A stretch of DNA of 64,000 nucleotides. Source: an uncultured Candidatus Saccharibacteria bacterium. Lineage in GTDB: Bacteria; Patescibacteriota; Minisyncoccia; Portnoybacterales; UBA2143. Below, piece by piece: positions 1,617 to 61,665 of this stretch. A program made the position numbers and the translations under genes. The notes below the pieces were generated by a model that worked only from the letters and a program-made list of their open reading frames with translations, ran no database searches and was not told the DNA's origin. Position 1 is the stretch's first letter; each line of letters starts with the position of its first letter. Where the stretch lies: NCBI GenBank assembly GCA_964413015.1, contig CAYPQZ010000006.1, positions 74,415 through 138,414 of the forward strand, written 5' to 3'.

Positions 1617-1674
1617 AAGGACAGTCCTTAAAATTACGTCCTTTGCAAAGGACGTAATTTTAAGGACTGTCCTT
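1617..1674. repeat. Family-A hairpin repeat (perfect 58-bp palindrome aaggacagtccttaaaattacgtccttt|gcaaaggacgtaattttaaggactgtcctt)
   Basis: Perfect inverted repeat read directly from the sequence. It is related to more than 10 other copies in the window. Confidence 0.9.
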
Positions 1675-1685
1675 TGATTAATTAT

Positions 1686-2768
1686 ATGAAAGATTACTAC
1701 GAAATTTTAGGCGTTTCTCGGAATGCCACCGAGCAGGAAATAAAGAAGAACTATAGAAAATTAGCCCTTAAATATCATCCTGACCGGGCGCCTCAAGACA
1801 AAAAAAAAGAATACGAAGAGAAATTTAAGGAAGTCAGCCAGGCCTATCGGGCGCTTTCTGACAAAGAAAAAAGAGCTCAGTATGACCAGTTTGGCCAGAC
1901 ATTTGAAAATGGCCAAGGGTCTTCTTTCGGACAGCAGGATTTTCGTTCTTTCCATGAGGCCTTTGGCGGACAGGACATTTTTGAAGATTTAGGTTTTGGC
2001 CGGATTTTTGAAGAAATGTTCGGCTTTGGGCGCGGAACTGAAACTGGTTCAAATGTCCACTATGGCCAGGATATATCTTTGGATATAGAAATTGATTTGG
2101 AAGATTCTTTTCACGGCGCGGAACAGAAGATAGAATTACGCAAGCTAATTATCTGTCCGAAGTGCCAAGGCAAAGGCGGGCAGTCATTGAAAAAATGTCC
2201 GGTCTGTCAGGGGAGCGGTTATGAGCAGATAAACAGCCGGAGTTTGTTCGGTCTTTTTATTCAGCAACGGCCTTGCTCTAATTGCCATGGCCGGGGAGAA
2301 GTTCCGGAAAAGACTTGTCCGGAGTGCCGCGGACAGGGAAGAATTAAACAGGCCCAGAAAATAAAAATAACCGTTCCGTCGGGAATTGACGACGGGCAGG
2401 TTTTAAAACTTTCCGGGTATGGGAATGCCGGTCTTTATGGCGGTCCGGCCGGCGATTTATTCGTTAATATCCATTTGCGGCCGCACAAGCATTTCCAACG
2501 GCAAGGTGATAACTTGCTCCTCAATTTAGAAATTAGCTTTGCTCAAGCAGCTTTAGGTGATAAAATAGAAATACCTTTGTTAGACGGAAAAGCTAATTTG
2601 AAGATTCCGGCTGGCATTCAGCCCGGAGAAATGATAAAATTAAAAGATAAAGGAATGCCTAGTTTGTACGGACGGGGACAGGGCGATTTAATTATTAAGA
2701 TTCAGGTCAAGGTTCCTAAAAAATTATCCCGTAAGCAGAAGAAGATTATTGGGGAATTAAATGGATAG
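1686..2768 (+). CDS. dnaJ: Molecular chaperone DnaJ
   Basis: J-domain YYEILGV...YHPD, a Gly/Phe-rich linker, and four CxxCxGxG zinc-finger repeats. The start is set at MKDYYEIL (ATG at 1686); the track ORF begins at a TTG at 1674. Confidence 0.9.
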
Positions 2769-2836
2769 TCGCAAAAGCTTCGAAAATAAATTTTGACAAG
2801 GGCAACCCAATAAGAACAGTCTTTTAATCTATATAA

Positions 2837-3379
2837 ATGGCGATTCGCGATTTTTTAACTAATTTTCATATTGGCGCGGCTTCGGGATGGGATTTGTTTA
2901 TTGTCCTGATTTTTTTGATTGCCGTTTTAGTTTACGGATTTTTTCTGGGACGCAACCGGATGATAATCCTTCTTTTAAGCAGCTATTTTTCTTTGGCGAT
3001 TGTTGAAGTTCTGCCTTGGGAGAGAATCAGTTCTTTATCCTGGTTGGGAGTCGGTTCCGAACCTTCATCTTCTTTGAAAATTCTTATCTTTGCGGGAATT
3101 ATTCTGTTGTTCTACTTTTTAATCCCTCGCTCTATACTCAGCTCAACCCTGAGAATCAGAAACCGAGGAGAGGCCTCCTGGCTGCAATTATTCATCCTAA
3201 GCATTGTTCAGGTCGGTTTGCTGGCAATGGTTATCTTTTCATTTTTGCCGTCCCAACCATTAGGGAATCTTAGCTATTGGATAAAAAAGGCCTTTGTAGA
3301 TCCGGAAGCCCGTTTCGTCTGGATTGCTCTTCCGATTCTGGTCATGGTTTTGATGCGCCGGAGGAAGAAACCGGAATAG
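2837..3379 (+). CDS. Membrane protein, hypothetical (CvpA-like?)
   Basis: 180 aa with four or more TM helices and a basic C-terminus. Confidence 0.4.
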   Translation: MAIRDFLTNFHIGAASGWDLFIVLIFLIAVLVYGFFLGRNRMIILLLSSYFSLAIVEVLPWERISSLSWLGVGSEPSSSLKILIFAGIILLFYFLIPRSILSSTLRIRNRGEASWLQLFILSIVQVGLLAMVIFSFLPSQPLGNLSYWIKKAFVDPEARFVWIALPILVMVLMRRRKKPE

Positions 3380-3429
3380 TTCGGTCTTTTAGCTTGATTT
3401 TTGCGGTAAATATTGTAGAATAAAAACGC

Positions 3430-3500
3430 GGGGGTATAGCTCAGGGGCAGAGCAGAAGGCTTTTAACCTTTTGACGGGGGTTCGATTCCCTCTACCCCTA
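3430..3500 (+). tRNA. tRNA-Lys (anticodon UUU)
   Basis: Cloverleaf: acceptor GGGGGTA/TACCCCT, D-arm GCTC-AGGGGCA-GAGC, anticodon arm GAAGG-CUUUUAA-CCTTT, T-arm GGGGG-TTCGATT-CCCTC. CCA is not encoded. Confidence 0.75.
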
Positions 3501-3582
3501 CTGGCAAGGCTGGTCTATTAAAGGCCGGTTTTTTTTATTAACAATTGATTGTTTTAGCGGTTTTTGTTAGAATGTTGACAAG

Positions 3583-4998
3583 ATGAAAAGAATTTTATCG
3601 TTTAAAACAATTGAAAAGAAAGGCGAGGAAGTTAAATTAAGCGGCTGGGTTCATTCGCGGCGCGACCACAGCCAGATTATTTTCATTGACTTGCGCGATA
3701 GAGGCGGATTGGTCCAGTTGGTTTTTCTCCCCGATAACCAAGAATGCTATAAATTAGCCGATTCTTTAAGGGGCGAATGGGTAATTGAAGTAATTGGCCA
3801 AGTCAAACAGCGGCCCAGAGGAATGGTTAATGAAAAAATTCCTACCGGAGAAGTAGAGGTGGAAATTAAAACCTTAAAGGTGCTTAATAAGGCCAAAACG
3901 CCGCCTTTTGAAATTGCCGAAGAGCCGGGTAAGGGCAAGAAAGGAGTTAATGAAGAGCTTCGGCTGGAATACCGTTATTTGGATTTAAGGCGGCAGAAAA
4001 TGAGAAGGAATTTATTTGTCCGCCATAAAGTCATTAAGTTAATTAGGGATTTTATGGATAAAAAGGGATTTGTTGAGGTGGAAACGCCTATTTTGACTAA
4101 ATCAACTCCGGAAGGCGCCAGAGACTTCTTAGTCCCCAGCCGTCTGCATTTGGGAGAATTTTACGCTTTGCCGCAAGCCCCCCAGCAATTGAAACAGCTT
4201 TTAATGGTTGCCGGGTTGGAAAAGTATTTTCAGGTTGCCCGCTGTTTCAGGGACGAAGATTTAAGGGGCGACCGCCAGCCGGAATTCACCCAGCTGGATA
4301 TAGAGATGTCTTTTGTCAAACAATCAAATATCTTGAAATTAGTTGAGAAAATGATTATTAAAATCATTAAGGAACTGATTTATGTTGATATAAAATTGTC
4401 AAAAAAGTTTACTTTTAACCCGTTTTTACGACTTGACTACCAGGAAGCCATCAAAAAATATAATACTGATAAGCCGGATTTGCGGAAGAACAAAAAAGAC
4501 CCGAACGAATTAGCATTTGTCTGGGTTTTAAACTGGCCTCTTTTTGAGTGGAACAACGATGAAAAAAGATACGATCCCTGCCACCATGTTTTTACGGCTC
4601 CTCAAGAAAAAGATTTGCCTCTATTGGATAAAAATCCTTTGAAAGTTCGTTCTCGGCAGTATGACTTGGTCCTTAACGGAGGCGAAGTTGGCGGAGGAAG
4701 CATCAGGGTTCACCAGGCGGATATTCAGAAAAAAATATTCAAACTGGTCGGCTTGCAGGAAGAAGAAATCAATGAAAAGTTCGGCCATTTACTGAAGGCC
4801 TTTGCTTATGGAGCGCCGCCTCATGGAGGAATTGCCTTAGGCCTAGATCGTTTTTTAATGACCCTACTTAACGAAAAAAGCATTCGGGAAGTAATTGCTT
4901 TTCCGAAGACAGGCGACGCCCAAGATTTAATCATGAAAGCTCCCAGCAAGGTCAGCCAAGGACAGCTCAAGGAATTAGGCATTAAGTTTGAGTCATAA
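3583..4998 (+). CDS. aspS: Aspartyl-tRNA synthetase, compact bacterial type
   Basis: N-terminal OB-fold, class II motifs FRDEDLRGDRQPEFTQLDIEMSF, the QAPQQLKQLLM (QSPQ-like) motif, and GGGSIRVH / GAPPHGGIALGLDR. Only 471 aa, with a strongly shortened insertion (GAD) domain. Confidence 0.9.
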   Translation: MKRILSFKTIEKKGEEVKLSGWVHSRRDHSQIIFIDLRDRGGLVQLVFLPDNQECYKLADSLRGEWVIEVIGQVKQRPRGMVNEKIPTGEVEVEIKTLKVLNKAKTPPFEIAEEPGKGKKGVNEELRLEYRYLDLRRQKMRRNLFVRHKVIKLIRDFMDKKGFVEVETPILTKSTPEGARDFLVPSRLHLGEFYALPQAPQQLKQLLMVAGLEKYFQVARCFRDEDLRGDRQPEFTQLDIEMSFVKQSNILKLVEKMIIKIIKELIYVDIKLSKKFTFNPFLRLDYQEAIKKYNTDKPDLRKNKKDPNELAFVWVLNWPLFEWNNDEKRYDPCHHVFTAPQEKDLPLLDKNPLKVRSRQYDLVLNGGEVGGGSIRVHQADIQKKIFKLVGLQEEEINEKFGHLLKAFAYGAPPHGGIALGLDRFLMTLLNEKSIREVIAFPKTGDAQDLIMKAPSKVSQGQLKELGIKFES

Positions 4999-5007
4999 GA
5001 GACTAAA

Positions 5008-12147: not shown

Positions 12148-12276
12148 GGATTTGATAAGAGGAAACAGATAAGGACTGTTTTTAAGGAAATTTAAGGGTT
12201 GTCATTGAGGATCACGTCCCTTTACAGAAGGCAAACTTGACAAGGACTGTCTTTATCATTGGCAATCCTTAACTTT
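12141..12276. repeat. Family-A modular repeat (partial copy)
   Basis: aatttaagga...gggttgtcattgaggatcacgtccc...aacttgacaaggactgtctttatca. The left end overlaps the gltX stop codon. Confidence 0.8.
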
Positions 12277-12278
12277 TT

Positions 12279-14797: not shown

Positions 14798-15739
14798 ATG
14801 GAAAAGAACCAAAAACCACTTCCTCAGCATTTAACTGATTTTCTGGACTGGTTGGACATTGAAAAAGGTTTATCTAATAAATCCCAGGAAAACTATTCCC
14901 GCTTCCTTAAGAAATTCATTGACTGGTTGGCAAAAAATAATCTAAGCGATTTAAAGCCTCACGAACTCTCCCCTGCCCATATTTGGGAATACCGAGTGTA
15001 TCTATCACGGCATTCCGAAAAACCTTTGAAAAAGACAACCCAGAACTATTACTTGATTGCTTTGAGGTCTTTTTTGAATTATTTTGCCAATCGAGATATA
15101 ATTTCCTTGCCTTCGGAGAAAGTCAAACTGGCCAAAAGCAAAGATGAGAAAAAGGTTCATTTCTTAAACCTAGAGCAAATAGAAAAACTTTTAGCGGCGC
15201 CGGATGTAAAGAGAATAAATGGATTAAGGGATCGGGTTATTCTAGAAGTTTTGTTTTCAACCGGATTGAGAATTGCCGAACTGGTTTCCCTTAACCGGGA
15301 CCAAATCAGGATTACTCCTTTGACCAAAGATTTAGAAATTGGTATTATCGGCAAAGGCAATCATAACCGAACAGTCTATTTCTCCGAAAGGACAGTTTAT
15401 TGGTTGAAAAAATATCTTGACCAAAGGGAAGACAAGGATAAAGCTCTGTTCGTTAATTATCAGGGCAGGAAAAACGCTACTCGGCGGCTGACTGACCGTT
15501 CCATTGAAAGGAATATAAAAAAATATTCTTTGCTAGCCGGGTTATCAGGCAACACCACCCCGCATACTCTTAGACATTCTTTTGCCACCGATTTGCTTTC
15601 TCAAGGTGTTGACTTGCGTTTAATTCAGGAATTCTTAGGACATCGGAATATTGCCACTACTCAGATTTACACCCACGTGACTAACAAACGTTTGAAGGAT
15701 ATCCATCGTAAATTTCACGGAGGTAAGAAATTAGAATAA
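14798..15739 (+). CDS. xerC: Tyrosine recombinase XerC/XerD family
   Basis: C-terminal catalytic motif HTLRHSFATDLLSQGVDLRLIQEFLGHRNIATTQIYTHV and an N-terminal core-binding domain. About 310 aa. Confidence 0.8.
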   Translation: MEKNQKPLPQHLTDFLDWLDIEKGLSNKSQENYSRFLKKFIDWLAKNNLSDLKPHELSPAHIWEYRVYLSRHSEKPLKKTTQNYYLIALRSFLNYFANRDIISLPSEKVKLAKSKDEKKVHFLNLEQIEKLLAAPDVKRINGLRDRVILEVLFSTGLRIAELVSLNRDQIRITPLTKDLEIGIIGKGNHNRTVYFSERTVYWLKKYLDQREDKDKALFVNYQGRKNATRRLTDRSIERNIKKYSLLAGLSGNTTPHTLRHSFATDLLSQGVDLRLIQEFLGHRNIATTQIYTHVTNKRLKDIHRKFHGGKKLE

Positions 15740-16883: not shown

Positions 16884-16912
16884 ATTTGAGACGTCCAACG
16901 TCTCAAATCCCA
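16884..16912. terminator. Bidirectional rho-independent terminator hairpin
   Basis: gatttgagacg-tccaa-cgtctcaaatc is a perfect 11-bp stem followed by a T/A run. It lies between convergent genes. Confidence 0.6.
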
Positions 16913-16915
16913 ATT

Positions 16916-17338
16916 TTAGTTGTTCGGTCTGTATTTTTCAAAATTGCCGCATGGGGCATAGCCGGCCGTCTGGGCTTCAGCTTCCGAATCAAACCAGATT
17001 TGGTTTTGAGGAGCAATTTTCTTAGCCCAAGGGCATTCGGGCCAATGGTATTTACTGCTGTTAACACTGCCAACAAGTTTCCCCTGCTCTTTCGTTGTGT
17101 CTTCAGTCGCATTTTCTCCAGAGTCAAATTTTGAGGCTTGAATAACTGAGGCCGAAGGATTTTGAATAACAATTGGCTTAATGTCTGCTTGAAGCGCGGT
17201 TAACCGGCCGGCGCCGAAACTGATTAAGGCGATTAAAATAATGCCGATGGTCAGAATAATATCCGACTCGTTATCCCCCGCCCATCGTTGAAGTTTTTTG
17301 GCATTTGGGTTGACGATCCTTTTTAAATCGGCTATCAT
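16916..17338 (-). CDS. Membrane-anchored protein with Ada-N-terminal-like Cys-rich (zinc-binding-like) domain
   Basis: One TM helix. The C-terminal [11 protein letters not shown]...[16 protein letters not shown] resembles the Ada Zn-binding fold (FCRPSC...SEALAAGFRPCKRC) but lacks the fourth Cys. Confidence 0.4.
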
Positions 17339-17344
17339 ATCTTT

Positions 17345-17617
17345 ATGAGTAAAACAAAATCGGCCGGATCAACTTCGCTCGGCCGTGATTCTCAACCAAA
17401 ATATCTTGGAGTCAAGTTATTTGGCGGTCAGCTGACCCAACCAGGCAGCATTATTGTTCGCCAACGAGGCACCAGGTTTTTGCCAGGCAAGAACGTCCGC
17501 CGGGGCAAAGACGACACCCTTTACGCTATAACTAAAGGAGTTGTTAAGTTTATTACCAAAAAAATTAAGCGCTTTGACGGTTCTCACAGAACCGCCAAAA
17601 TAGTTAATGTGGAATAA
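17345..17617 (+). CDS. rpmA: 50S ribosomal protein L27
   Basis: [19 protein letters not shown]...GKDDTLYA is the L27 signature. Confidence 0.9.
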
Positions 17618-17645
17618 ATAATTAAAAAGAATCTGAAGTAAGAAA

Positions 17646-17675
17646 AAAAGACCCCAAACGGGTCTTTTTTTTTAT
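17646..17675. terminator. Bidirectional rho-independent terminator
   Basis: aaagaccccaaacgggtcttttttttt lies between convergent rpmA and rplI. Confidence 0.7.
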
Positions 17676-17678
17676 TCC

Positions 17679-18182
17679 CTACTCTTCTTTTATTTCTTTT
17701 CTAGCGGGTTCTGCTTCTTCGATGACAATAATCTTGATTTTGGCTTCTAAATTATGAGGAAATTCCACCGTGGTTTCGTACTCTCCCAACTCTTTAATCG
17801 GCGCGTCTATTTTAATCTGTTCTTTTTTTATCTCAAAATTTTCCGGCAGGCCTTCAATAAAAGATATATTTTCTTTTAATTTTCCGGCAATTTGACCGGC
17901 GCCAACCGTTCCGAAAAGACCACCTTCTTTATTTGTCTTAACTGGTATTTCTATCTCCAGGCCATCTATCTGGCTGGCTATTTTCTGGAAAAGCCCCAGT
18001 TCTTTTTCGGCTTTTCCGGCGTCAATTCTTTCCTGCTCTTTTATTTTACTGATTTCCGATTTAGTTGCCAAAACAGCTATCTGTTTGGGAATCAAAAAGT
18101 TGCGGCCGTACCCGTCAGCCACTTTTTTAACTTCTCCTTTTTTCCCTAAATTTTCCAAGTCTTTAAGTAAAACTACTTGCAT
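17679..18182 (-). CDS. rplI: 50S ribosomal protein L9
   Basis: MQVVLLKDLENLGKKGEVKKVADGYGRNFLIPK. The start is taken at the internal Met of the track ORF. Confidence 0.85.
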   Translation of the reverse strand: MQVVLLKDLENLGKKGEVKKVADGYGRNFLIPKQIAVLATKSEISKIKEQERIDAGKAEKELGLFQKIASQIDGLEIEIPVKTNKEGGLFGTVGAGQIAGKLKENISFIEGLPENFEIKKEQIKIDAPIKELGEYETTVEFPHNLEAKIKIIVIEEAEPARKEIKEE

Positions 18183-21502: not shown

Positions 21503-21506
21503 ATTT

Positions 21507-21742
21507 TTATTTAAGGATTGTCATTGAGGATTACGTCTCTTCGCCTTTGGCGAAGGGCGTGTCCGCCTGCCCGCCTCTGGAGGGAAAGGACGACTCCTTA
21601 AATTTTGACAAGGATAAACTGATAAGAACAGTCTTTAAAATGACGCCCTTGTGCTCAAGGGACATCATTTTAAGGACTGGCCTTATCATCATCTGTTCTT
21701 ATCGTATGACAATTCTTAAATTTTTAAAAGTCGACTGTTCTT
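21507..21742. repeat. Family-A modular repeat, full-length copy (L-module ... R hairpin)
   Basis: tttaaggattgtcattgaggattacgtc ... ccgcctctggagggaaaggacgactccttaaattttgacaagg ... ataagaacagtctttaaaatgacgcccttgtgctcaagggacatcattttaaggactggcctt. Confidence 0.85.
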
Positions 21743-27658: not shown

Positions 27659-28591
27659 CTATACCTCCATTCCCCGGAGGGCCTTAACTCGTTCCTCAAC
27701 CGGCGGATGGGTGCTGAATAATTTAGAAACTTTTTTGCCTTTAAACGGACTGTTAATATACAGGTGCGCGGTGGCTTTGTTGGCGATTTTCAAAGGAGTT
27801 TGGTCGGCTGATATTTTTTCCAAAGCCCGGGCTAATCCTTCCGGATAGCGGGTCAACAAGGCGCCGCTGGCGTCAGCCAGAAATTCCCGCTTGCGGGAAA
27901 TGGATAATTGAATTAAAGAAGCGATGAAAGGAGACAAAATTGCCAGAGCAAAGCTGATTAAAATCATAATGCCGGCAAATTGCCCGCCTCCTCGATTATC
28001 GCTTTTGCTTCTCCCAAAAACGCTCCATCGCACAAACCAGTCAGAAAGCAGAACCACCATACCTACTAAAACTACTACCACGGTTTGCAAAAGAATATCT
28101 CGGTTTCCAATATGGCTTAATTCATGAGCTAGGACGCCTTCTAATTCCGAACGGTCCAGTTTTCCCAAAAGTCCGCGAGTTACCGCAATAACCGCGTGTT
28201 CCGGATTCCGGCCGGTGGCAAAAGCATTTGGCGCCATTTCGTCAATAATGTATATTTTGGGCAAAGGCAGGCCGGCAGTAATGCATAAATTTTCTACCAA
28301 ACGGTACAGCTCAGGATTATCTTTTTTTTCAACCTTCTTGGCCTTGCTCATTTTAAGAACAATTTTGTCTGAATACCAATAAGAAATAAAACTCATTAAA
28401 GAGCTGAAAGCCACGGCTATTATTAGAATAAGCGGACTTTCAAATTGATAAGAAAAAACCCAGCCCAGTCCGATAATGAAAATAAGAAAAATAGAAATTA
28501 ACAGCCACGTCTTACGGATATTTGAATCTTTGTGAGTGTATAAAGTAGGCATGCGAGTAAAGGAAGCCCTCAAAAATTTAAGGATTGTCAT
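27659..28591 (-). CDS. htpX: Zinc metalloprotease HtpX (M48)
   Basis: HELSHIGNRD HExxH motif and TM helices. The first 7 codons (MTILKFL) are encoded by the family-A repeat end. An alternative start is M14. Confidence 0.85.
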   Translation of the reverse strand: MTILKFLRASFTRMPTLYTHKDSNIRKTWLLISIFLIFIIGLGWVFSYQFESPLILIIAVAFSSLMSFISYWYSDKIVLKMSKAKKVEKKDNPELYRLVENLCITAGLPLPKIYIIDEMAPNAFATGRNPEHAVIAVTRGLLGKLDRSELEGVLAHELSHIGNRDILLQTVVVVLVGMVVLLSDWFVRWSVFGRSKSDNRGGGQFAGIMILISFALAILSPFIASLIQLSISRKREFLADASGALLTRYPEGLARALEKISADQTPLKIANKATAHLYINSPFKGKKVSKLFSTHPPVEERVKALRGMEV

Positions 28592-28800
28592 TGAGAGCAG
28601 TGAACTTCCGCCGAAGGCGGAAAGTTACGCTCGCCTGTCCGCCTCTGGAGGGAAAGGACGATTCTTAAATTTTGACAAGCTTCCATGATAAGAACAGTCT
28701 TTAAAATGACGCTCTTGTTCAAGGGACATCATTTTAAGAATTGTCCTTATCATCAGCGTATTCCAAGGGACATTATTTTGAGAACTATCCTTATCGTCAA
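28573..28800. repeat. Family-A modular repeat, full-length copy
   Basis: aatttaaggattgtcattgag...ccgcctctggagggaaaggacgattcttaaattttgacaag...ataagaacagtctttaaaatgacgctcttgttcaagggacatcattttaagaattgtcctt. Confidence 0.85.
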
Positions 28801-28832
28801 GGCACATTCTCCTGTAACGAGACCGATTAGAT

Positions 28833-29518: not shown

Positions 29519-29580
29519 AAAGGACAGTCCTTAAAATTGTACTCCTTGGAATAAGGATGTAATTTTAAAGACTGTCCTTT
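29519..29580. repeat. Family-A hairpin repeat (imperfect variant)
   Basis: aaggacagtccttaaaattgtactccttggaataaggatgtaattttaaagactgtcctt. Confidence 0.8.
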
Positions 29581-29600
29581 AATTATTTAATTTATTCCAA

Positions 29601-31285
<1,685 letters not shown>

Positions 31286-31593: not shown

Positions 31594-31698
31594 AGAATAG
31601 TCAACAAAAAAAGCAATAAAAGCAAACAAGAAATCTGTTTATCATCTATTACTTTCTGTTTCTCTTTTATTTTATCTTAATAAAAATTATTTAAACCG

Positions 31699-31873
31699 TC
31701 AACCCAGTAGAAGAATTTTGAAACAAATTTTAACAAAGTTAAAATTTAAATTAAAAATATTCAAAATTTCTCTACTGGGTCAACCCAGAAGAAGAATTTT
31801 GAAATAAATTTTAACAAAGTTAAAATTTAAATTAAAAATATTCAAAATTTCTCTACTGGGTCAACCCAGAATC
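31699..31873. repeat. Family-B element, tandem 81-bp direct repeat x2.15 (cccagtag variant); each unit is a ~20-bp inverted-repeat hairpin
   Basis: Units 31699..31779 and 31780..31860 plus a partial third, of the form tcaacccagtagaagaattttgaaa...ttcaaaatttctctactggg. Confidence 0.85.
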
Positions 31874-32803: not shown

Positions 32804-32839
32804 ATTATAAAAATTTAAGAATTGTTATTAAAGCCATTA

Positions 32840-32900
32840 AAGGACAGTCCTTAAAATGATGTTCCTTAAGCACAAAGACGTCATTTTAAAGACTGTTCTT
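32840..32900. repeat. Family-A hairpin repeat
   Basis: aaaggacagtccttaaaatgatgttccttaagcacaaagacgtcattttaaagactgttctt. Confidence 0.8.
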
Positions 32901-32980
32901 CAATCAATTATACTCCATTCCCTCCAAATAAAAAAGGACGCTGGTCCTTTTGATTCAGAACTAACGCCCTATTACTTTTT

Positions 32981-33504: not shown

Positions 33505-33605
33505 AATACGGTTCTTAAATTTTGATAAGGATAAGCAGATAAGGACAGTCTTTAAAATGATATCCCTTGAGCACAAGGGCGTCATTTTAAAGACTGTCCT
33601 TTAAC
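33505..33605. repeat. Family-A repeat (R-hairpin with partial spacer)
   Basis: cttaaattttgataagg...ataaggacagtctttaaaatgatatcccttgagcacaagggcgtcattttaaagactgtcctt. Confidence 0.85.
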
Positions 33606-33884
33606 CATTGCCTCAAAAACTTTATTTCTCTGTTTGAATCCTTTTACTAACTTAATATTTCCAACAGGGATTTTGAAATATTCAGCCAAAACCTTTGCAA
33701 CCGCCCGGTTGGCCTGTCCTTGGATCGGCCTTTCCTTGACCCAAACCTCAAAACTGTTTTCGCCTTTTTTTATTATTTGCTCCTGACCTGCTTGAGGGAA
33801 AACTTTTACTTTTATCAGCATAGTGTTTTCGTGCCTTAAAATTAGACGGCGTTCGGTAACTAGGCCGTCCCTTGCGTCCGCCAA
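33582..33884 (-). CDS. DUF167/YggU family protein
   Basis: The KVKV.P.A....I...G...EVWV...P..G.AN.A........F family pattern is present. The last 8 codons and the stop are encoded inside the family-A hairpin. Confidence 0.55.
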   Translation of the reverse strand: MADARDGLVTERRLILRHENTMLIKVKVFPQAGQEQIIKKGENSFEVWVKERPIQGQANRAVAKVLAEYFKIPVGNIKLVKGFKQRNKVFEAMVKGQSLK

Positions 33885-35279: not shown

Positions 35280-35385
35280 AATGGTTAATTAAGTAATCAT
35301 CCTTAAACCGATATAGAACAGTCCTTAAATTTCCTTAAGGACTATTCTTATTTGTTTATGGCAATCCTTAAATTTTTCAAAGATT

Positions 35386-39209: not shown

Positions 39210-39318
39210 TTGAAGAACGGCCTTCAAAAATTTAAGGACTGTCCTTTAACGGCTTTAATAGCAATCCTTAAATTTTTAATGCTTGACTGGGTTTTAGTTA
39301 TGTGATAACCTTTAAGCA

Positions 39319-45387: not shown

Positions 45388-45462
45388 AATCTCAGTTCTT
45401 TATTTTAATTAATCTAAAAATCATAAAAGTCCCGGACGAACGGGGCTTTTATGATTAAAAAA

Positions 45463-45580
45463 AAGACAGTCCTTAAAATGATGTCCCTTGAGCACAAAGG
45501 CGTCATTTTAAAGACTGTCCTTATCAGTTTCCCCTTGTCAAAATTTAAATCCTTAAATTTTTAAACTGTCCTTTAACTAA
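45463..45580. repeat. Family-A repeat (R-hairpin plus spacer and short end module)
   Basis: gacagtccttaaaatgatgtcccttgagcacaaaggcgtcattttaaagactgtcctt...ccccttgtcaaaatttaaatccttaaatttttaaactgtccttt. Confidence 0.85.
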
Positions 45581-47608: not shown

Positions 47609-47659
47609 ATTGACTATTCTAACTAAAAAACCACCTCGGGTCAAGGATTCAGCATAATT

Positions 47660-47826
47660 AAAGGACAGTCCTTAAAATGATGTCCCTTGAGCACAAGGGC
47701 GTCATTTTAAAGACTGTCCTTATCTGCTCCCCTTTGTCAAAATTTAAGGAGTCGTCCTTTCAAACACGCCCTTCGCAATTCTGCAAAGGGACGTGACTCT
47801 CAATGACAATCCTTAAATTTTTTAAT
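47660..47826. repeat. Family-A modular repeat, full copy in inverted orientation (R hairpin ... L-module)
   Basis: aaggacagtccttaaaatgatgtcccttgagcacaagggcgtcattttaaagactgtcctt...tcaaaatttaaggagtcgtcctttc...gacgtgactctcaatgacaatccttaaatttt. Confidence 0.85.
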
Positions 47827-47831: not shown

Positions 47832-48020
47832 TTACTCTTCCTTCTCAATCGCCTGAACTGGACAGATGTCTATAGCTTCTTGGACGCATTGGTCGTCTGC
47901 ATCTTCTTTCCCCTCTTTAATATGCGCTTTATTTTCGTTATCCATTTCAAAAACATCCGGGCAAACAGCTGTACAGCTGCCACAACCAAGACATTTTTCT
48001 TTGTCTATTTTTATACTCAT
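47832..48020 (-). CDS. 4Fe-4S ferredoxin (single-cluster type)
   Basis: CLGCGSCTAVCP...C pattern in a 62-aa protein. Confidence 0.7.
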   Translation of the reverse strand: MSIKIDKEKCLGCGSCTAVCPDVFEMDNENKAHIKEGKEDADDQCVQEAIDICPVQAIEKEE

Positions 48021-48022
48021 AC

Positions 48023-48158
48023 ACCGTAGAAGAATTTTGAATTTTAATCAATAACATTGATTAATAATCTAAGATTCTTCCTTATTTAATTATTCCTATA
48101 TACCCCGTTTTATTAAATTAAATATTTAATTTAATTATTTCAAAATTTCTCTACGGGG
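48023..48158. repeat. Family-B element (TIR caccgtagaagaattttgaa ... ttcaaaatttctctacgggg) with TCATA direct repeats on both flanks
   Basis: It fills the entire fdx-fba intergenic region. The left TCATA (48017..48021) carries the fdx start codon and the right TCATA (48159..48163) carries the fba stop codon. Confidence 0.85.
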
Positions 48159-49025
48159 TCATAATCTGTTATTGCTTTTAAATAATTTAATTTTTTCTTC
48201 AACGACCTTTTGGACCGTTTCGACTACCGACGGCATTATTTTATAAGGAGTAGTCTGTTTGGGATTCTCCTTTAGAAATTTCCTGAGCGCCTTGGCATAA
48301 GCAAGACGCAATTCCGTATTTACATTAATTTTAACGATTCCCGATTCAACAGCTTTCTGAATATCGTCTTCCGGAGTACCAGAGCCTCCATGAAGAACTA
48401 AAAAGACTTCTTTGCCTAAAACGCTATTGATTTCTTTTAGACGGTCTATGAAAAGATGAGGGTTGCCGGAAATATCATTCTTCTTAATAATTCCATGGAT
48501 ATTGCCAATAGCTATTGCTAAGCTTGTCACTCCTGTATTTTTAATAAATTCCTTGGCCTGCTTCGGCTTTGTCAAATCCTCTTCTTTGATTTCCATTGAT
48601 TCTTGCAAAGACGAACTGCCCCTTAAATAACCAATTTCACCTTCAACGTTTTGAATCCCTTTCCCCTTAGCTAAATTAACCACTTTCTTGGTCATCTTTA
48701 TGTTTTCCTCAAAGCTTAATTCTGAGCCGTCAAACTGGACAGAATCGTATCCGCTTTCAACCGCTTTTTGAATAATCTCCCATGACTTGCCGTGATCCAG
48801 ATGTAAAAAGATTGGCAAGCCGGTTTCTTTTTTGTAAACATTAATTAAAGCTCTAATCTGTCTTACTCCAATAAAATTACTTTCCCCTTGGGAAGTAGCG
48901 ACAATAACCGGACTTTCTAATTTTTGAGCAGCCTGAACAATCGCTTTCACTTGCTCTAAATTAGAGACATTAAAAGCCCCGATGGCATAATGATTAGTTT
49001 GCGCTTTTTTGAATACGTCTAACAT
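48159..49025 (-). CDS. fba: Fructose-bisphosphate aldolase class II
   Basis: Class II FBA pattern with HLDHG and VLHGGSG. Confidence 0.9.
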   Translation of the reverse strand: MLDVFKKAQTNHYAIGAFNVSNLEQVKAIVQAAQKLESPVIVATSQGESNFIGVRQIRALINVYKKETGLPIFLHLDHGKSWEIIQKAVESGYDSVQFDGSELSFEENIKMTKKVVNLAKGKGIQNVEGEIGYLRGSSSLQESMEIKEEDLTKPKQAKEFIKNTGVTSLAIAIGNIHGIIKKNDISGNPHLFIDRLKEINSVLGKEVFLVLHGGSGTPEDDIQKAVESGIVKINVNTELRLAYAKALRKFLKENPKQTTPYKIMPSVVETVQKVVEEKIKLFKSNNRL

Positions 49026-51279: not shown

Positions 51280-51342
51280 AGCTTACACGAATCTTAAAAA
51301 TTTAAGGATTGTTATTAAAAACCATTAAGGGACTGTCCTTTA

Positions 51343-52311
51343 TCATTTCCTCTTGATGACTTTTAGAACTGCTTCTTTAATATCTTTTGCCACTAAACCG
51401 AATTCTTTCATTAGCTCATCCGGCTCGCCGGATTCGCCAAAGCGGTTCTGAATGCCAATCATTTCAATAGGCACCGGTTCATTTTTAGCTAAAACTTCCG
51501 CTACTGCGCTGCCTAAGCCACCCATTACCTGATGGTCTTCGCCAGTGACAATTGCTCCGGTCTGTTCAGCCGCTTTAATAATTTCCTCTTCGTCAATCGG
51601 CTTAATCGTATGATTGTTAATCACCCGCACATCAATTCCTTGTTTAGACAAACTCTCAGCGGCTAACAAAGCTTCATAGACAATCGGTCCACAGGCAATT
51701 ATGCTGACATCTCGCCCTTTTCGTAAAACTTCTGCCTGCCCGATTTTAAAAGGTGTCTTAGAAGTAGTAAAAATAGGCGTGGCTTCCCTAGCAAATCTTA
51801 AATAAACCGGTCCCTCTATTTTGCCTGCGGCCACAGTTGCTTTCTGCGTTTCAACAGCATCACAGGGAGCCAATACAGTCATATTCGGCAAACAGCGAGT
51901 AATCGCTATATCCTCTAATCCCTGATGAGTGGCTCCATCTGCGCCAACTGAAACCCCGGCATGGGCGCCGGTCATTTTCACATTGACGTTGTTATAGGCA
52001 ACAGATATTCTGATTTGGTCCCAGTTGCGTCCGGGGCAAAAAACGGAATAAGTTGAAACAAAAGGAATTTTGCCGGTGAGCGCTAATCCGGCCGCTACGC
52101 CAATCATATTTTGCTCGGCAATCCCACATTGAACAAATCTTTCCGGGAATTCATCACGGAACCAGTTACAGCGGGTTGAACCAGTTAAATCAGCTCCTAA
52201 AACAATTATGTTTTTATTCTCTTTAGCCAGTTCAACCAACCCTAAACCATAGCCGTCACGAGTCGGCTTTTTTTCTAACTTGCTTTTATTGTATAAATTT
52301 TTTGCTAGCAT
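51343..52311 (-). CDS. tktB: Transketolase, C-terminal subunit (pyrimidine-binding plus C-terminal domains)
   Basis: Pyrimidine-binding and C-terminal domain patterns. Split-gene arrangement. Confidence 0.85.
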   Translation of the reverse strand: MLAKNLYNKSKLEKKPTRDGYGLGLVELAKENKNIIVLGADLTGSTRCNWFRDEFPERFVQCGIAEQNMIGVAAGLALTGKIPFVSTYSVFCPGRNWDQIRISVAYNNVNVKMTGAHAGVSVGADGATHQGLEDIAITRCLPNMTVLAPCDAVETQKATVAAGKIEGPVYLRFAREATPIFTTSKTPFKIGQAEVLRKGRDVSIIACGPIVYEALLAAESLSKQGIDVRVINNHTIKPIDEEEIIKAAEQTGAIVTGEDHQVMGGLGSAVAEVLAKNEPVPIEMIGIQNRFGESGEPDELMKEFGLVAKDIKEAVLKVIKRK

Positions 52312-52335
52312 GTTTTAAAATGATATCTTTTAACG

Positions 52336-52505
52336 ATAAGGACATTCCTTAAAATGATGTCCCTTGAGCACAAGGGCGTCATTTTAAAGACTGTTCTTAT
52401 CAGTTTGTCTTATCTGTTTCCCCTTGTCAAAATTTAAGGAGTCGTCCTTTCCCTCCGGAGGCAGACATATGACAATCCTTAAATTTTTCAAAACTGTCCT
52501 TTAAC
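52336..52505. repeat. Family-A modular repeat, full copy (inverted orientation) between the two tkt halves
   Basis: aaggacattccttaaaatgatgtcccttgagcacaagggcgtcattttaaagactgttctt...ccccttgtcaaaatttaaggagtcgtcctttccctccggagg...atgacaatccttaaatttttcaaaactgtccttt. Confidence 0.85.
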
Positions 52506-54050: not shown

Positions 54051-54484
54051 TGTTCCATTTCCTCTATTTTATTTAATCTTCTAACATGTCTTTCATCGCC
54101 GCTAAATTCTGTTTTTATCCAGATCCGGACAATTTTCTTGGCAGTCTCTGAATCCACTATTTTACTCCCCAGACAAAGTACATTGGCATTATTATGTTCC
54201 CTTGACTGTAAAGCGGTAAAATCATCCCAGCAAACGGCTGCCCGGACTCCTTTCATTTTATTAGCCGCCATGGCCATGCCAAATCCAGTAGCGCAAATTA
54301 AAATCCCTTGCCCGTTATTTTCAACTGTTTTTTCAGCTACTGCTGAAGCAAAATCAGGATAGTCATCCTCCAATTCCAACTTTTTATTCCCTAAATCTTC
54401 ATATTCATGCCCTAATTCCTCAAGATATTTCTTGAGTTCTTCCTTTAGATTAAAACCGGCATGGTCAGCGCCTAAATAAATCAT
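54047..54484 (-). CDS. rpiB: Ribose-5-phosphate isomerase B
   Basis: MIYLGADHAGF..K and CATGFGMAMAANK. Confidence 0.9.
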   Translation of the reverse strand: MIYLGADHAGFNLKEELKKYLEELGHEYEDLGNKKLELEDDYPDFASAVAEKTVENNGQGILICATGFGMAMAANKMKGVRAAVCWDDFTALQSREHNNANVLCLGSKIVDSETAKKIVRIWIKTEFSGDERHVRRLNKIEEMEQ

Positions 54485-54485
54485 A

Positions 54486-54621
54486 CCCCGTAGAAGAATT
54501 TTGAATTCTAATCAATTTTATCGATTAGCAATCTAAAAAATTTTCACTTAATTATTTATAGAACGCCCCGTTTTATTAAATTAAATCAAAGATTTAATTG
54601 TTTCAAAATTTCTCTACGGGG
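54486..54621. repeat. Family-B element (TIR ccccgtagaagaattttgaa ... ttcaaaatttctctacgggg) with TCATA direct repeats on both flanks
   Basis: It fills the rpiB-gap intergenic region. The left TCATA (54481..54485) contains the rpiB start and the right TCATA (54622..54626) contains the gap stop. Confidence 0.85.
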
Positions 54622-55602
54622 TCATAGTTTTTTCCCAATAAACTCTGCAAATTCAGCCAAGCGGCAGGCGTATCCATATTCATTATCATACCAGGCCAAA
54701 ACCTTAACCAATTTTTTCTCTTGAACCATGGTTGAAGCCGCATCAACAATTGCGGAGAAAGAACTCCCTTTGTAATCAACCGAAACTAATGGACTTTCTT
54801 CAACTCTTAAAATCCCTTTTAAATTATCCTGTTCTGAGGCCTTTTTAAAAGCAATGTTAATTCCTTCAACATCCGTTTCTTTTTTAACTTTAGCTACAAA
54901 ATCAACCAACGAAACAACCGGGGTAGGAACCCTTATGGCCAAACCGTGAATTTTGCCTTTTAGTTCAGGGATTGTTTTTATTACAGCAATTGCTGCTCCA
55001 GTAGTCGTCGGGACCATTGACAGGGCCGCTGAACGAGCCCGGCGCAAATCCTTTCGATGAGGAGAATCCAAAAGCTTCTGGTCATTGGTATAACTATGGA
55101 TCGCAGTCATTAAACCGGACTCTATCTCGAATTCCTGATGAAGAATATTGGCTATAGGAGCCAGACAATTAGTCGTACATGACGCCATAGAGACAATATT
55201 ATCTTTTTCAGGGTTATAATTTTCTTGGTTAACGCCTAAAACAAAATGAGGCATAGCCTCACTTTTAGAAGGAGCTGAAATAATAACTTTTTTAGCTCCA
55301 GCTGATAAATGTTTTTGGGCATCTTCTATTTTGGTAAACAGGCCGGTGCATTCCAGGACCACATCCACTTCCATTTTCCCCCACGGCAGCTTAGCCGGAT
55401 CTTTTTCAGCTAAAACTTTATCTTCCGGTAAAGGATTCTCATATTTTCCGTAAACCGAATCATATTTTAATAGATGAGCCAAAGTTTTGGCGTCGGTTAA
55501 ATCATTAATCGCGACTATCTCTAAATTCGGATGTTTGTCCAGAATCCTACGAAAAACTGGCCGGCCAATTCGGCCAAACCCATTAATTGCGATTTTAATC
55601 AT
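54622..55602 (-). CDS. gap: Glyceraldehyde-3-phosphate dehydrogenase
   Basis: INGFGRIGR and ASCTTNCLAP. Confidence 0.95.
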   Translation of the reverse strand: MIKIAINGFGRIGRPVFRRILDKHPNLEIVAINDLTDAKTLAHLLKYDSVYGKYENPLPEDKVLAEKDPAKLPWGKMEVDVVLECTGLFTKIEDAQKHLSAGAKKVIISAPSKSEAMPHFVLGVNQENYNPEKDNIVSMASCTTNCLAPIANILHQEFEIESGLMTAIHSYTNDQKLLDSPHRKDLRRARSAALSMVPTTTGAAIAVIKTIPELKGKIHGLAIRVPTPVVSLVDFVAKVKKETDVEGINIAFKKASEQDNLKGILRVEESPLVSVDYKGSSFSAIVDAASTMVQEKKLVKVLAWYDNEYGYACRLAEFAEFIGKKL

Positions 55603-55606
55603 AAAT

Positions 55607-55645
55607 TTCTACGAATTACGAATTTATTACGAATATACGAATTTT
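55607..55645 (-). promoter_or_regulatory. 39-bp ATTCGTA-heptad array immediately 5' of gap (identical to the groEL copy)
   Basis: Identical 39-mer to 31247..31285. More degenerate tacgaat/gcgaata motifs lie further upstream (55646..55720). Confidence 0.6.
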
Positions 55646-58662: not shown

Positions 58663-59343
58663 CTAATTGTTAAGCTTTTCTTCGATGATTTTTTCAAAGC
58701 TGTCATACGTCAGAGCGCCAACAACTTTCTGTCCGTTAATTAAGAAAGTTGGCGTTCCCTCAACACCATCTTCATTGGATTTCAAAAACCATCCTCTGAC
58801 AACTTCTTCGTGCTCGCCTGAATCAAAACACTGATTAAATTTATCCTGATTTAGCTCCAAATCCCCAGCTGCTTTTTTTAACGAATCAACTACCATAGTT
58901 TCCGCTTCTTCAGCAGAGCTTGCTTGGTTTATTTGCTCAAGAATTTCGTTAATATGCTCAAAAAGATATTCATCAAATTCCCAAAAACCCTTTTGATCTC
59001 CGGCGCAAAGAACCGCTATGCCCAGAATTGAAGGAGAAACGATCCGATGAACAAACTTAACTTGCCCTTCTTTAACGTACTTATCAATAATCAAAGGTAG
59101 AGTTTCTGAATGGAATTTAGCGCAGTATCCACACAAATGACTGGAGTATTCAATAATATCTACTGGCGCGTCTTTGTCGCCTAAAATAAATTCGTCGGTT
59201 AATTCAACCGGAGAATCGCTGGTAGCGTCAGTAATTGAAGCTGTCTGGTTATCAACTGGTTGTTTTCCCCAATTGGCATACCAAACAATACCCGCTAAAA
59301 CTAAAATTGCTCCAAAACCTAAAATGTATGTTTTTTTATTCAT
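58663..59343 (-). CDS. DsbA-like thiol:disulfide oxidoreductase, membrane-anchored
   Basis: CGYC active site in a thioredoxin fold with an N-terminal anchor. The start is taken at MNKKTYI. Confidence 0.65.
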   Translation of the reverse strand: MNKKTYILGFGAILVLAGIVWYANWGKQPVDNQTASITDATSDSPVELTDEFILGDKDAPVDIIEYSSHLCGYCAKFHSETLPLIIDKYVKEGQVKFVHRIVSPSILGIAVLCAGDQKGFWEFDEYLFEHINEILEQINQASSAEEAETMVVDSLKKAAGDLELNQDKFNQCFDSGEHEEVVRGWFLKSNEDGVEGTPTFLINGQKVVGALTYDSFEKIIEEKLNN

Positions 59344-59478
59344 GCCCCGTAGAAGAACTTTGACATTCACCTTAAATATCAAAATCTTAATTAATGTTTT
59401 TAATTTATTCTGTGTTTATACACCCCGTATGTCTATTTATTCGCCTTGGGCGAATGAGTCAAAGTTTCTCTACGGGGC
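59344..59478. repeat. Family-B element (TIR gccccgtagaagaactttga ... tcaaagtttctctacggggc)
   Basis: Lies between the dsbA-like start and the mtaD-like stop. The internal palindrome ttcgccttgggcgaa is shared with the 42729 copy. Confidence 0.8.
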
Positions 59479-59502
59479 AGGCACTTTAACCTAACATCTT
59501 TT

Positions 59503-60795
59503 TTAAAAAATAGCAAACTTTTTAGCTTGGTCTAAAACTTTATCCTGATTGACTCTTTCTATTTCCCTGTTTTCCATAAACACTCGGCCGTTAATAATCG
59601 CTGTTTCTACATCACTGCCTTTAGCTGAATAAACTAAATGAGAAATGACATTATGGCAAGGTGCCAAATGCGGATTTTTAAAATCAAGAACAATTAAATC
59701 AGCCTGTTTGCCCTTTTCTAAAGAGCCGATTTCTTTTTCTAAATTCAAGGCTCTGGCTCCATTAATGGTCGCCATATCTAAAACTGTTTGTGCATCAGCT
59801 ACTGTCGGATTTAACTGATTAACTTTGTGCAATAAGGCGGCGGTTTTCATTTCTTCAAACATATCCAAGCTATTATTGGAACAGGCGCTATCGGTGCCTA
59901 AGCTGATATTGATTCCGGCCTTAAGCATTTCCGTCAAAGGCATAGTTCCGGAAGCCAGCTTCATATTGGAAATCGGACAATGAGCCACCGAGGCGCCGGA
60001 CTGGGCTAAAATTTTAATTTCCTTTTTATTCAGCCAGCAGCAATGGACTAATAAGGTTTTATCATCCAGAATTCCTGCCTTAAATAAAACTTCAATTGGC
60101 CGCTTTTTGTATTTTTTCAGACAATAATCCACTTCCCCTTTAGTTTCAGACAAATGAGTCATTAAAAGCAAATTGTTTCCTTTAGAGATTTCTTTGCACT
60201 GTTGATAAGTTTTTAAAGAGGTTGTCTGAAACATATGCGGCGCTAAAGCAACACTAAGAATATCCCCTTTAGTGGACCGGATCATTTTTTTAGCCTGTTC
60301 CAGCGCTTCCAAAGGGCTTTTGAAAGCAAAAGTCGGCAAATCAAGTGCCGCGCATCCCAAAATTCCCCGCATGCCAATTTCGCGAACTGCTTTAGCTACT
60401 TGATCCTCATAGTAATAAAAATCAGTGAAGCAAGTCGTTCCTGATTTAATCATTTCCAGTATAGCCAGTAAAGAACCTACATAAACATGATGGGGCGTAA
60501 ATTGTGATTCAGCCGGATAAATATGCTTAAGCCACCATTTTTCCAAAGATAAGTCGTCAGCATATCCCCTCAATAAAGTCATTGCCAGATGGCCATGGGT
60601 ATTAATCAGACCAGGCATAACTATTTTCCCTTGACCATCAATTACTTTTTTGGCCTGTCTGGCATATTTTTTTTCTATGGTTTTACTCTGGCCAATATCT
60701 TTAATTTTATCGCGCTCAATAAAAAGCCCAGCATTTTCAACAATCCGCCGTTTATTATCTTGAGTAACTAAAGTGGCATTTTTAATCAAAATCAT
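59503..60795 (-). CDS. Amidohydrolase, MTA/SAH deaminase (MtaD)-like
   Basis: PGLINTHGHLAMTLLRG metal-binding HxH and the fold pattern of the SsnA/MtaD/guanine deaminase family. Confidence 0.7.
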   Translation of the reverse strand: MILIKNATLVTQDNKRRIVENAGLFIERDKIKDIGQSKTIEKKYARQAKKVIDGQGKIVMPGLINTHGHLAMTLLRGYADDLSLEKWWLKHIYPAESQFTPHHVYVGSLLAILEMIKSGTTCFTDFYYYEDQVAKAVREIGMRGILGCAALDLPTFAFKSPLEALEQAKKMIRSTKGDILSVALAPHMFQTTSLKTYQQCKEISKGNNLLLMTHLSETKGEVDYCLKKYKKRPIEVLFKAGILDDKTLLVHCCWLNKKEIKILAQSGASVAHCPISNMKLASGTMPLTEMLKAGINISLGTDSACSNNSLDMFEEMKTAALLHKVNQLNPTVADAQTVLDMATINGARALNLEKEIGSLEKGKQADLIVLDFKNPHLAPCHNVISHLVYSAKGSDVETAIINGRVFMENREIERVNQDKVLDQAKKFAIF

Positions 60796-61409
60796 ATTTT
60801 ACAAATTGGTCTAAAACTTTTGCGATGGATTTCTGAAGGACCGAATTTTTTTAATTTTTCAAAATGAAGCTTGGTCCCATATCCTTTATGTTCCATAAAT
60901 CCATACTGGGGATATTTCTTATTCAGCCGGCACATTAACTTGTCTCGGCTTACTTTAGCAATTATAGAAGCCAGAGAAACAGTCATAATTTTTTCATCGC
61001 CTTTAACTATTGACTGCTGTTCAATATTTAGATTACTTAAAGTTCTGTTGCCATCTAAAAAAAGAAAATCCGGAGAGCAATTTAGCTTTTTAATACAGCG
61101 CCGCCAGGTTAATTCGGTCGCTTTCAAAATATTAATCCGGTCAATTGTTTTTGGCCAAACAAAGCTGACTTTCCATTTAATACCCGATTCCTGTTTAATT
61201 GCCTCAAATATTTCTTCTCTCTGTTTTTCAGAAAGCTGTTTGGAATCTTTAATTTTTAATCCCCTAAAACTAGGCAAATCATCTTTATCAATTAAAACAG
61301 CCGCCCCGGCTACCGGACCGGCTAAAGGCCCCCTCCCGGCTTCGTCAACTCCGGCAATTAACCGGTAGCCCTGCTTGAAAAGAGATTTTTCTTGAAATGA
61401 AAAAGCCAC
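60792..61409 (-). CDS. rnhB: Ribonuclease HII
   Basis: IAGVDEAGRGPLAGPV. Confidence 0.9.
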   Translation of the reverse strand: MAFSFQEKSLFKQGYRLIAGVDEAGRGPLAGPVAGAAVLIDKDDLPSFRGLKIKDSKQLSEKQREEIFEAIKQESGIKWKVSFVWPKTIDRINILKATELTWRRCIKKLNCSPDFLFLDGNRTLSNLNIEQQSIVKGDEKIMTVSLASIIAKVSRDKLMCRLNKKYPQYGFMEHKGYGTKLHFEKLKKFGPSEIHRKSFRPICKI

Positions 61410-61439
61410 AAAATTAAGATGATTAAAGGATAGCCAATT

Positions 61440-61665
61440 AAAGGACAGTCCTTAAAATGATGTCCCTTGGGATAAGGACTATGATAAGGACAGTCCTTAA
61501 AATGATGTCCCTTGAGCACAAGGGCGTCATTTTAAAGACTGTTCTTATCAGTTTCCCTTTATCAAAATTTAAGGAGTCGTCCTTTCCCTCCAGAGACGGG
61601 CAGGCGGACACGCCCTTTGCCTTCTGTAAAGGGCGTGATCCTCAATGACAATCCTTAAATTTTTC
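61440..61665. repeat. Family-A modular repeat, full copy with duplicated half-hairpin (inverted orientation)
   Basis: aaggacagtccttaaaatgatgtcccttgg... then a full hairpin, then ...tcaaaatttaaggagtcgtcctttccctccagagacggg...gggcgtgatcctcaatgacaatccttaaattttt. Confidence 0.85.

Follow-up and report, generated by a model that had tools for sequence, protein, structure and literature searches.

Several families of miniature repeats have been described in bacteria. The REP/BIME/REPIN repeats of Proteobacteria are mobilized by RAYT, and a GTAG-like 5′ tetranucleotide head beside the palindrome defines REPs. The Correia elements of Neisseria (CREE/NEMIS) duplicate a TA target and contain an IHF site, the BOX (boxA-boxB-boxC), RUP and SPRITE repeats are pneumococcal, and the Rickettsia palindromic elements (RPEs) spread in a reduced genome. 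Genomes of the candidate phyla radiation (CPR; Patescibacteria) are usually described as streamlined and repeat-poor. We analyzed a 64-kb stretch (the window) of contig CAYPQZ010000006.1 (assembly GCA_964413015.1, positions 74,415 to 138,414), in which a modular palindromic repeat, family A, was found at 15 intergenic sites as full, partial or minimal copies where the chance expectation was none. Family A is evidently mobile and, in an ultra-small CPR genome, adds a new family to a kind of miniature mobile repeat that is already known. Its copies are probably non-autonomous mobile DNA elements of a Parcubacteria (CPR) genome, similar to miniature inverted-repeat transposable elements (MITEs) or REPINs and moved in trans. 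Intragenomic parasites would be present in this ultra-small genome, wedged among core housekeeping genes.

Recurrence of family A and its filled and empty junctions

A preceding sequence-only reading had listed a hairpin, an L-module and a GC-rich mini-hairpin as recurring modules, together with the positions of their copies. The modules proved to be far above chance: the 61-nt hairpin consensus matched the window six times at ≤3 mismatches, the L-module four times and the GC mini-hairpin four times, and none of the three matched any of 100 dinucleotide shuffles. Every listed copy position was recovered by an unbiased repeat search and a sensitive blastn search for which five full copies served as queries. 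These gave 14 sites (starts at 1616, 2787, 12151, 21505, 28571, 29497, 32808, 33508, 35357, 39227, 45453, 47625, 52330, and 61392), and the repeat search added a mini copy at 51295-51343. The copies were 40-240 nt long and mutually 80-95% identical, contained no conserved open reading frame, and were all intergenic or clipped gene ends only. Together they summed to approximately 1.9 kb, which is approximately 3% of the window and approximately 30% of the non-coding DNA within it (6.2 kb). The hexamer AAGGAC/GTCCTT occurred 42 times in these 6.2 kb vs 24 times in the 57.8 kb of coding DNA (approximately chance level). Beyond the window, no further family A copies were found over 9.2 kb on its upstream side and 8.65 kb on its downstream side. 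All flanking genes were on the - strand; the copies at 21505 and 28571 ran L..R on the + strand and those at 47625, 52330, and 61392 ran R..L, so that both orientations relative to transcription occurred, as had been read from the sequence. Eight contigs (L001-L004, L028, L029, L033, and L034; L numbers designate the contigs compared) were 100% identical to the window, and since four independent assemblies agreed in this way, family A is not an assembly artefact.

We compared orthologous junctions with those of six close relatives (L012, L014, L016, L030, L031, and L032; GroEL 91-96% identical to that of the window) and of a more distant relative, L022 (a syntenic stretch of 14.5 kb, 61-89% protein identity). 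Five junctions were filled by a 110-283-nt element in the window, whereas the relatives' genes overlapped or were 0-29 nt apart. Between lemA and htpX, the spacer was 280 nt in the window and 0-10 nt in L012, L014, L016, L031, and L032, with both protein ends intact (HtpX N-terminus MPTLYTHKDSN). Between the GT2 and LytR genes it was 221 nt vs 4 nt in L016, with the element lying exactly between the TAA stop and AAAAAT-ATG. The junction of the DUF167-like gene with the next gene measured approximately 110 nt vs an ATGA overlap in three relatives, that of the 2-hydroxyacid dehydrogenase gene with rnhB 283 nt vs overlapping genes in L022, and that of fdx (ferredoxin) with rplY approximately 195 nt vs 29 nt in L022, with alignable flanks. 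The reverse was found at two junctions (pfkB|x and x|fba), where L022 carried family A hairpins and the window genes abutted or overlapped (0-8 nt). One junction (tktN|tktC) was occupied by composites in both the window (L..R relative to transcription) and L022, in opposite orientations. Between a 109-aa gene and pspC, the window had degenerate fragments where L024 and L031 had a hairpin variant of 101 nt.

These filled and empty patterns are what would be expected of a mobile element and not of an ancient fixed signal, and they support the suggestion of MITE-like mobility in place of a fixed regulatory cassette, for which empty orthologous sites had been named as the check. The alignments showed insertion of family A copies into minimal spacers or overlapping stop/start codons of compact operons. 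The DUF167-like gene (33582-33821, - strand) takes its final codons and its stop from a hairpin arm: the C-terminus reads ...FEAMVKGQSLK* vs ...FEVK* in relatives, with seven new residues from the arm, and the insert separates this gene from the next one, whose start overlapped its stop ancestrally (ATGA).

Downstream of groEL, four relatives had ordinary GC-stem/T-run terminators and a fifth had a different long hairpin; at this spot the window had a family A hairpin followed by TTTTTTGTTTT, just before the conserved lemA promoter. The groEL-proximal copy, with a T-run after it, was thus exactly at the position of the four relatives' canonical terminator, as would be expected if the hairpins were host transcription or RNA-processing signals (bidirectional terminators, 3′-end stabilizers or RNase III sites) fixed by selection and not mobile. 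The T8 after the 45462 copy on the - strand, the inner core of the hairpin (AAAA-stem-loop-stem-TTTT, terminator-like on both strands), and the 27-28-bp stems, which would be RNase III substrates, agree with such a role. However, a T-run in the direction of transcription followed only two of approximately 11 hairpins (29519 and 45462). The other copies were inside operons with mixed sequence after the hairpin, many of them between genes that overlap in relatives; the hairpins were absent from close relatives; and the terminal-repeat, H1 and H2 modules described below would be unnecessary for termination. We consider it improbable that the hairpins are primarily such signals. A few copies have acquired host roles, two being terminator-like (29519 and 45462, hairpin plus T-run) and one supplying the stop codon.

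Anatomy of the element and its proposed mobilization

An alignment of nine copies gave the module order: a left terminal inverted repeat (TIR-L, AAAAATTTAAGGATTGTCAT), a hairpin H1 that may be absent (two sequence types, both of which fold), a GC-rich segment H2 (likewise optional), a linker (GAAAGGACGACTCCTTAAATTTTGACAAGG...GATAAG), the main hairpin, and, each in some copies only, an extra half-hairpin and TIR-R. The 52330 copy was without H1, and the 47625 copy and that of the relative L022 were without H2. A variant of TTAAGGAYNGTC was present at every module boundary. Complete copies had TIRs of 16-20 nt (ATTTAAGGATTGTCAT, 21509-21524; ATGACAATTCTTAAAT, 21706-21721), which the sequence-only reading had not described. 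The basic unit was a 58-63-bp palindrome with inverted 27-nt arms; the 18-nt outer arms (AAGGACAGTCCTTAAAAT and its complement) each started with the 13-nt palindrome AAGGACNGTCCTT, which capped the main hairpin on both sides, and the base preceding the arms (AAGGAC...) varied (A, T or C). A second small unit (AAAAATTTAAGGATTGTCAT...ATGACAATCCTTAAATTTTT) was bounded by related TTAAGGAYNGTC ends, and mini elements of approximately 50 nt (39227, 51295, and 32808) consisted of little beyond two such ends. A promoter at the linker TTGACA was rejected because its spacing to any -10-like hexamer, judged by eye, was wrong and no consistent signal emerged.

Two details of the hairpin had been misjudged. 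It had been called perfect, which was true of the 1617 copy only (28 bp), the remaining copies having 1-3 mismatches or a bulge; and its ends, described as GC-clamped, were AAGGAC.../...GTCCTT and A/T-rich. Folded as DNA, ten copies gave z values of -4.6 to -13.7, and whole composites, folded as RNA, formed closed rods with the terminal repeats paired (z = -8.8 for the 61430 copy and -9.7 for the 21505 copy). In 23 hairpins, taken from the window and from 12 loci of other contigs, each arm was almost invariant over its outer 18 nt, whereas in the center the inner stem and loop varied or held inserts of 20-45 nt. Such conserved ends and a free center are the signature of protein-recognized terminal repeats, not of an RNA selected for shape alone. 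Pairing in the main hairpin was 94% and compensatory change was sparse. Structural covariation was rejected as weak (four double-change pairs, marginally above shuffles), and this weak compensatory variation, with arms conserved in sequence, also speaks against the hairpins being host RNA signals. The copies were extragenic palindromic units in inverted doublets, as in REPs and REPINs, and short non-coding multicopy sequences with TIRs and insertion polymorphism, as in MITEs.

The palindrome AAGGACNGTCCTT occurred 11 times vs 2.3 expected and was invariant across genomes, and related 13-mers (AAGGAACGTCCTT and AAGGCACGGCCTT) capped other hairpins in relatives. On these grounds, a conserved DNA-binding protein of the host (a nucleoid protein, a global regulator or a DNA-uptake receptor) could bind it, and the repeats would then be arrays of sites. 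However, the word was not enriched in coding DNA, for which reason a DNA-uptake sequence was rejected; its placement with respect to promoters and start codons was not fixed; and AAGGN5CCTT words were missing from approximately 65 kb of the close relatives L012, L014, and L016 (GroEL 91-93% identical). The long composite build and the insertion between overlapping genes would also go unexplained, and we regard arrays of host binding sites as a very unlikely explanation of the repeats, although the 13-mer itself may be such a site.

If family A consists of non-autonomous mobile elements, as we prefer, its 18-nt arms with AAGGACNGTCCTT would presumably be recognized by a trans-acting transposase or recombinase. 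The anatomy suggests that the 170-240-bp composites formed by nesting or fusion of units sharing ends, plus the two optional GC-rich hairpins. Inserted copies would be transcribed with the operon as very stable stem-loops, and orientation flips may have come from recombination between inverted ends. A Shine-Dalgarno-like word was present ≤25 nt upstream of only 7 of the 65 window genes, and A/T-rich sequence preceded most start codons. Copies may persist because the genome hardly uses Shine-Dalgarno sites and because the inserts fold back on themselves, and insertion beside start codons would be tolerated because initiation is independent of such a site.

Several observations weigh against this account. 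By Pfam annotation, no transposase of any family was present in the window or its 18 kb of flanks (82 kb), where the only recombinase was a XerC/D-like gene, and none lay between the hairpins in L011 and L026. Some junctions were occupied in several genomes, with which a target hotspot and ancient retention are both compatible. Candidate 4-nt target repeats (AAAA, AATG, and TTAA) were found at three sites, but with AT-rich flanks and ambiguous element ends none was unambiguous. The near-invariance of the arms is also compatible with binding of a conserved host protein. Finally, the contigs from the same population were all identical and showed no strain-level presence/absence polymorphism, and thus gave no sign of current activity. 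An IS1595 element in L016 was tried as an autonomous partner and rejected, its ends being unrelated to family A.

A variant of the mobile-element reading is that the repeats are REPIN-type doublets kept by a single-copy domesticated RAYT (HUH/Y1) elsewhere in the genome, and not MITEs of DDE insertion sequences. The two inverted 27-nt arms, each with its own short palindrome and with a short loop between them, would fit it, as would the isolated half-units that appear to be remnants (28760-28799 and 61441-61478), the lack of a clear target duplication, and the very strong hairpin formation as single-stranded DNA. However, no Y1_Tnp (PF01797-type) gene was present in the 82 kb examined or between the hairpins in L011 and L026, there was no GTAG-like conserved head, and the composite copies had conventional TIRs; we judge this variant possible but unlikely. 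An equally doubtful proposal is that the arms are sites of a recombinase specific to a Parcubacteria clade (e.g., a domesticated single-copy RAYT-like or other enzyme), the repeats being maintained vertically as REPINs are, and that the 27-28-bp RNA stems also punctuate operons, as partial terminators or RNase III sites, where initiation is not led by Shine-Dalgarno sequences. What moves family A is the more interesting question. Its copies also offer natural test cases of hairpin insertions reshaping operon expression, terminators and protein ends, may serve as markers for strain and lineage typing, and are likely to break contigs when CPR genomes are assembled.

Individual copies, host and distribution

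The simplest copies were stand-alone hairpins. That at 1616-1680 had a perfect 28-bp stem (DNA fold -31.1 kcal/mol, z = -13.7), filled the whole 63-nt spacer upstream of dnaJ, and differed by 1 nt from the hairpin of L023; that at 29519-29590, directly 3′ of groEL, was followed by TTTTTTGTTTT. Five composites retained most modules. The complete one at 21505-21726 (+ strand) consisted of TIR-L (21509-21524), H1 (21533-21560), the H2 region (21563-21585), linker (21585-21623), main hairpin (21624-21684), and TIR-R (21706-21721). The copy at 28571-28800 (+ strand; whole insert relative to relatives, 28553-28832) had TIR-L, a type-b H1, H2, linker, main hairpin (28690-28748), and an extra half-hairpin (28760-28799), and the full composite at 61430-61666 (- strand) had TIR-L, H1, H2, linker, main hairpin (61486-61546), and an extra half-hairpin (61441-61478). 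The composite without H2 at 47651-47825 (- strand) had TIR-L, H1, linker, and main hairpin (47661-47721). In the one without H1 at 52331-52500 (- strand), between the two transketolase half-genes, TIR-L and H2 were followed by a duplicated linker and the main hairpin (52338-52398).

Partial copies combined fewer modules. At 2787-2827 (+ strand), a fragment of the linker module (TAAATTTTGACAAGG...) and the start of the left hairpin arm was 85% identical over 41 nt to the 21505 copy, and at 12151-12278 (+ strand) a rearranged partial copy comprised a linker fragment, TIR-L, half of H1, and a TIR-R-like end abutting the ATG of the next gene. The copy at 33508-33605 (+ strand) was a linker module plus main hairpin (33541-33601), whose arm encodes the end of the DUF167-like gene, and that at 45453-45576 (- strand), between convergent genes, had a main hairpin (45462-45522), linker, and TIR-like end, with the T8 following the hairpin on the - strand. 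A mini TIR unit (32808-32855) was fused to a main hairpin (32840-32900) at 32808-32909 (- strand). Just upstream of a family A hairpin there was also a small canonical terminator (32932-32951, - strand; AAAAGGAC-cagc-GTCCTTTTTTATTT) with the family A stem word AAGGAC/GTCCTT. Mini elements were located at 39227-39277 (approximately 50 nt, AAAAATTTAAGGACTGTCC...GCAATCCTTAAATTTTT) and at 51295-51343, between pfkB and the gene for the C-terminal half of transketolase, and a degenerate cluster of TIR-like and 13-mer units was located upstream of pspC (35289-35381).

The window was identical to GenBank LQBG01000056.1 ("Firmicutes bacterium ML8_F2") and to several JGI/Logan contigs. The ML8_F2 bin, of 3.0 Mb and 46.6% GC, was described as a Dethiobacter relative from Mahoney Lake (PMC4846661). 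The GC content of the window was 39%, its GroEL shared 79-96% identity with proteins from metagenome-assembled genomes (MAGs) of Patescibacteria, Parcubacteria and Portnoybacteria, and its gene content was typical of Parcubacteria/CPR (dnaJ, mur genes, ftsW, split transketolase, pentose-phosphate enzymes, lemA-htpX, and groESL). Thus, the contig, which comes from Mahoney Lake, was mis-binned; it belongs to Parcubacteria (Portnoybacteria-like, CPR) and not to a Firmicute, and the public bin is flagged as contaminated by a CPR contig. The region at approximately 16900-17700 (with 14798-15739) looks like a replication terminus, with a peak of cumulative GC skew, converging gene orientation (+ on the left, - on the right), and an adjoining gene of the XerC/D recombinase type.

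In exact-pattern scans, the hairpin turned up in only three MAGs among the species-representative genomes and in ten metagenome contigs, all of 28-35% GC. Several of these, although bearing names such as "Saccharibacteria," proved to be relatives syntenic with the window, and one 41-kb contig (L022 plus L026) carried six hairpins. The distribution is patchy among related low-GC CPR contigs. The claim of lineage specificity has to be qualified, the hairpin being common to several related Parcubacteria-type contigs. Horizontal spread across phyla, which the MAG names ("Saccharibacteria," "Firmicutes") might suggest, was unsupported, since L007, L022, L024, and L027 were syntenic relatives (61-89% protein identity) and the names unreliable. 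In Rfam, only three tRNAs were detected at the gathering threshold, and permissive searches gave the hairpins only chance-level miRNA/sRNA matches (E = 0.1-0.7); a known RNA family was ruled out at both thresholds. An origin from phages or plasmids was rejected, as three patterns had no matches in viral contigs and blastn gave none in phage or plasmid collections. Full-text literature searches found no description of such repeats in CPR bacteria. The view that the repeat is undescribed was consistent with all of these searches.

Relatives carried other families of long hairpins capped by related 13-nt palindromes (AAGGCACGGCCTT, AAGGAACGTCCTT, and AAGGACCGTCC), sometimes nested beside family A hairpins (L016, 11660-11730; L008, 6037-6200; L010, 780-985; L011, 5640-5840; L022, 9926-9938; L030, 16-28). 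Their ends suggest that they may form with family A a superfamily sharing AAGG-N5-CCTT termini. A hairpin variant with a conserved loop insert of approximately 45 nt (GCCGAAYGAT...CTAAGATGGAAAGGA) occurred in L026 (5929-6031), L022 (12027-12128), L024 (1880-1980), and L031 (793-893) and may be a longer deletion derivative of a parent element.

Two further small insertion families were observed in the window. Family B (approximately 150 nt, inverted ends CCCCGTAGAGAAATTTTGAA...TTCAAAATTCTTCTACGGGG) was present at 31682-31872, 48017-48170, 54481-54633, and 59400-59480, the copy upstream of groES consisting of two tandem 81-nt units. Family B was present at three junctions whose genes overlap or are adjacent in L022 (gapdh|rpiB, amidohydrolase|dsbA, and fba|ferredoxin), and therefore these copies are insertions too. 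The family C motif, four ATTCGTA heptads (AAATTCGTATATTCGTAATAAATTCGTAATTCGTAGAAA), immediately preceded the start codons of groEL and gapdh (31242-31285 and 55603-55645). The grx|gapdh spacer was 119 nt in the window vs 6 nt in L022.

Comparison with known repeat systems

Family A resembled the REP/BIME/REPIN repeats in being extragenic, imperfectly palindromic, present in both orientations, and built of mosaic modules, with inverted doublets giving long hairpins, presumed transcription within operons, and no obvious target duplication. It differed from them in having no sequence similarity, longer arms (27 nt), a CPR host, and ordinary TIRs in its composites, and no RAYT gene in the 82 kb and no GTAG-type head were found. 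The likeness to REP/BIME elements proposed from the sequence therefore stands as an analogy (extragenic, palindromic, mosaic modules), but not as membership.

Correia elements are approximately 100-150 bp long and family A copies 60-240 bp. Both have TIRs of 16-27 nt, are dense between genes, may supply terminators or alter gene ends, and have no known autonomous partner; Correia elements are co-transcribed and form long double-stranded RNA stems, and family A copies presumably do so too. The sequences are unrelated, neither the TA target duplication nor the IHF site of Correia was shown for family A, and family A is nested and modular.

Like BOX, RUP and SPRITE, family A forms modular composites in which some internal modules are optional, lies between genes in a low-GC host, and folds strongly. 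A known pneumococcal or enterococcal repeat (BOX, RUP), considered in view of the 39% GC, was rejected on account of the CPR host and the unrelated sequences. BOX modules, moreover, are not built of one recurring palindromic word, and RUP has a known IS630-type partner.

The RPEs of Rickettsia, like family A, are palindromic repeats spreading in a reduced genome and able to alter protein ends, as at the DUF167 C-terminus here. They are often in frame inside genes, whereas family A is intergenic and clips gene ends only.

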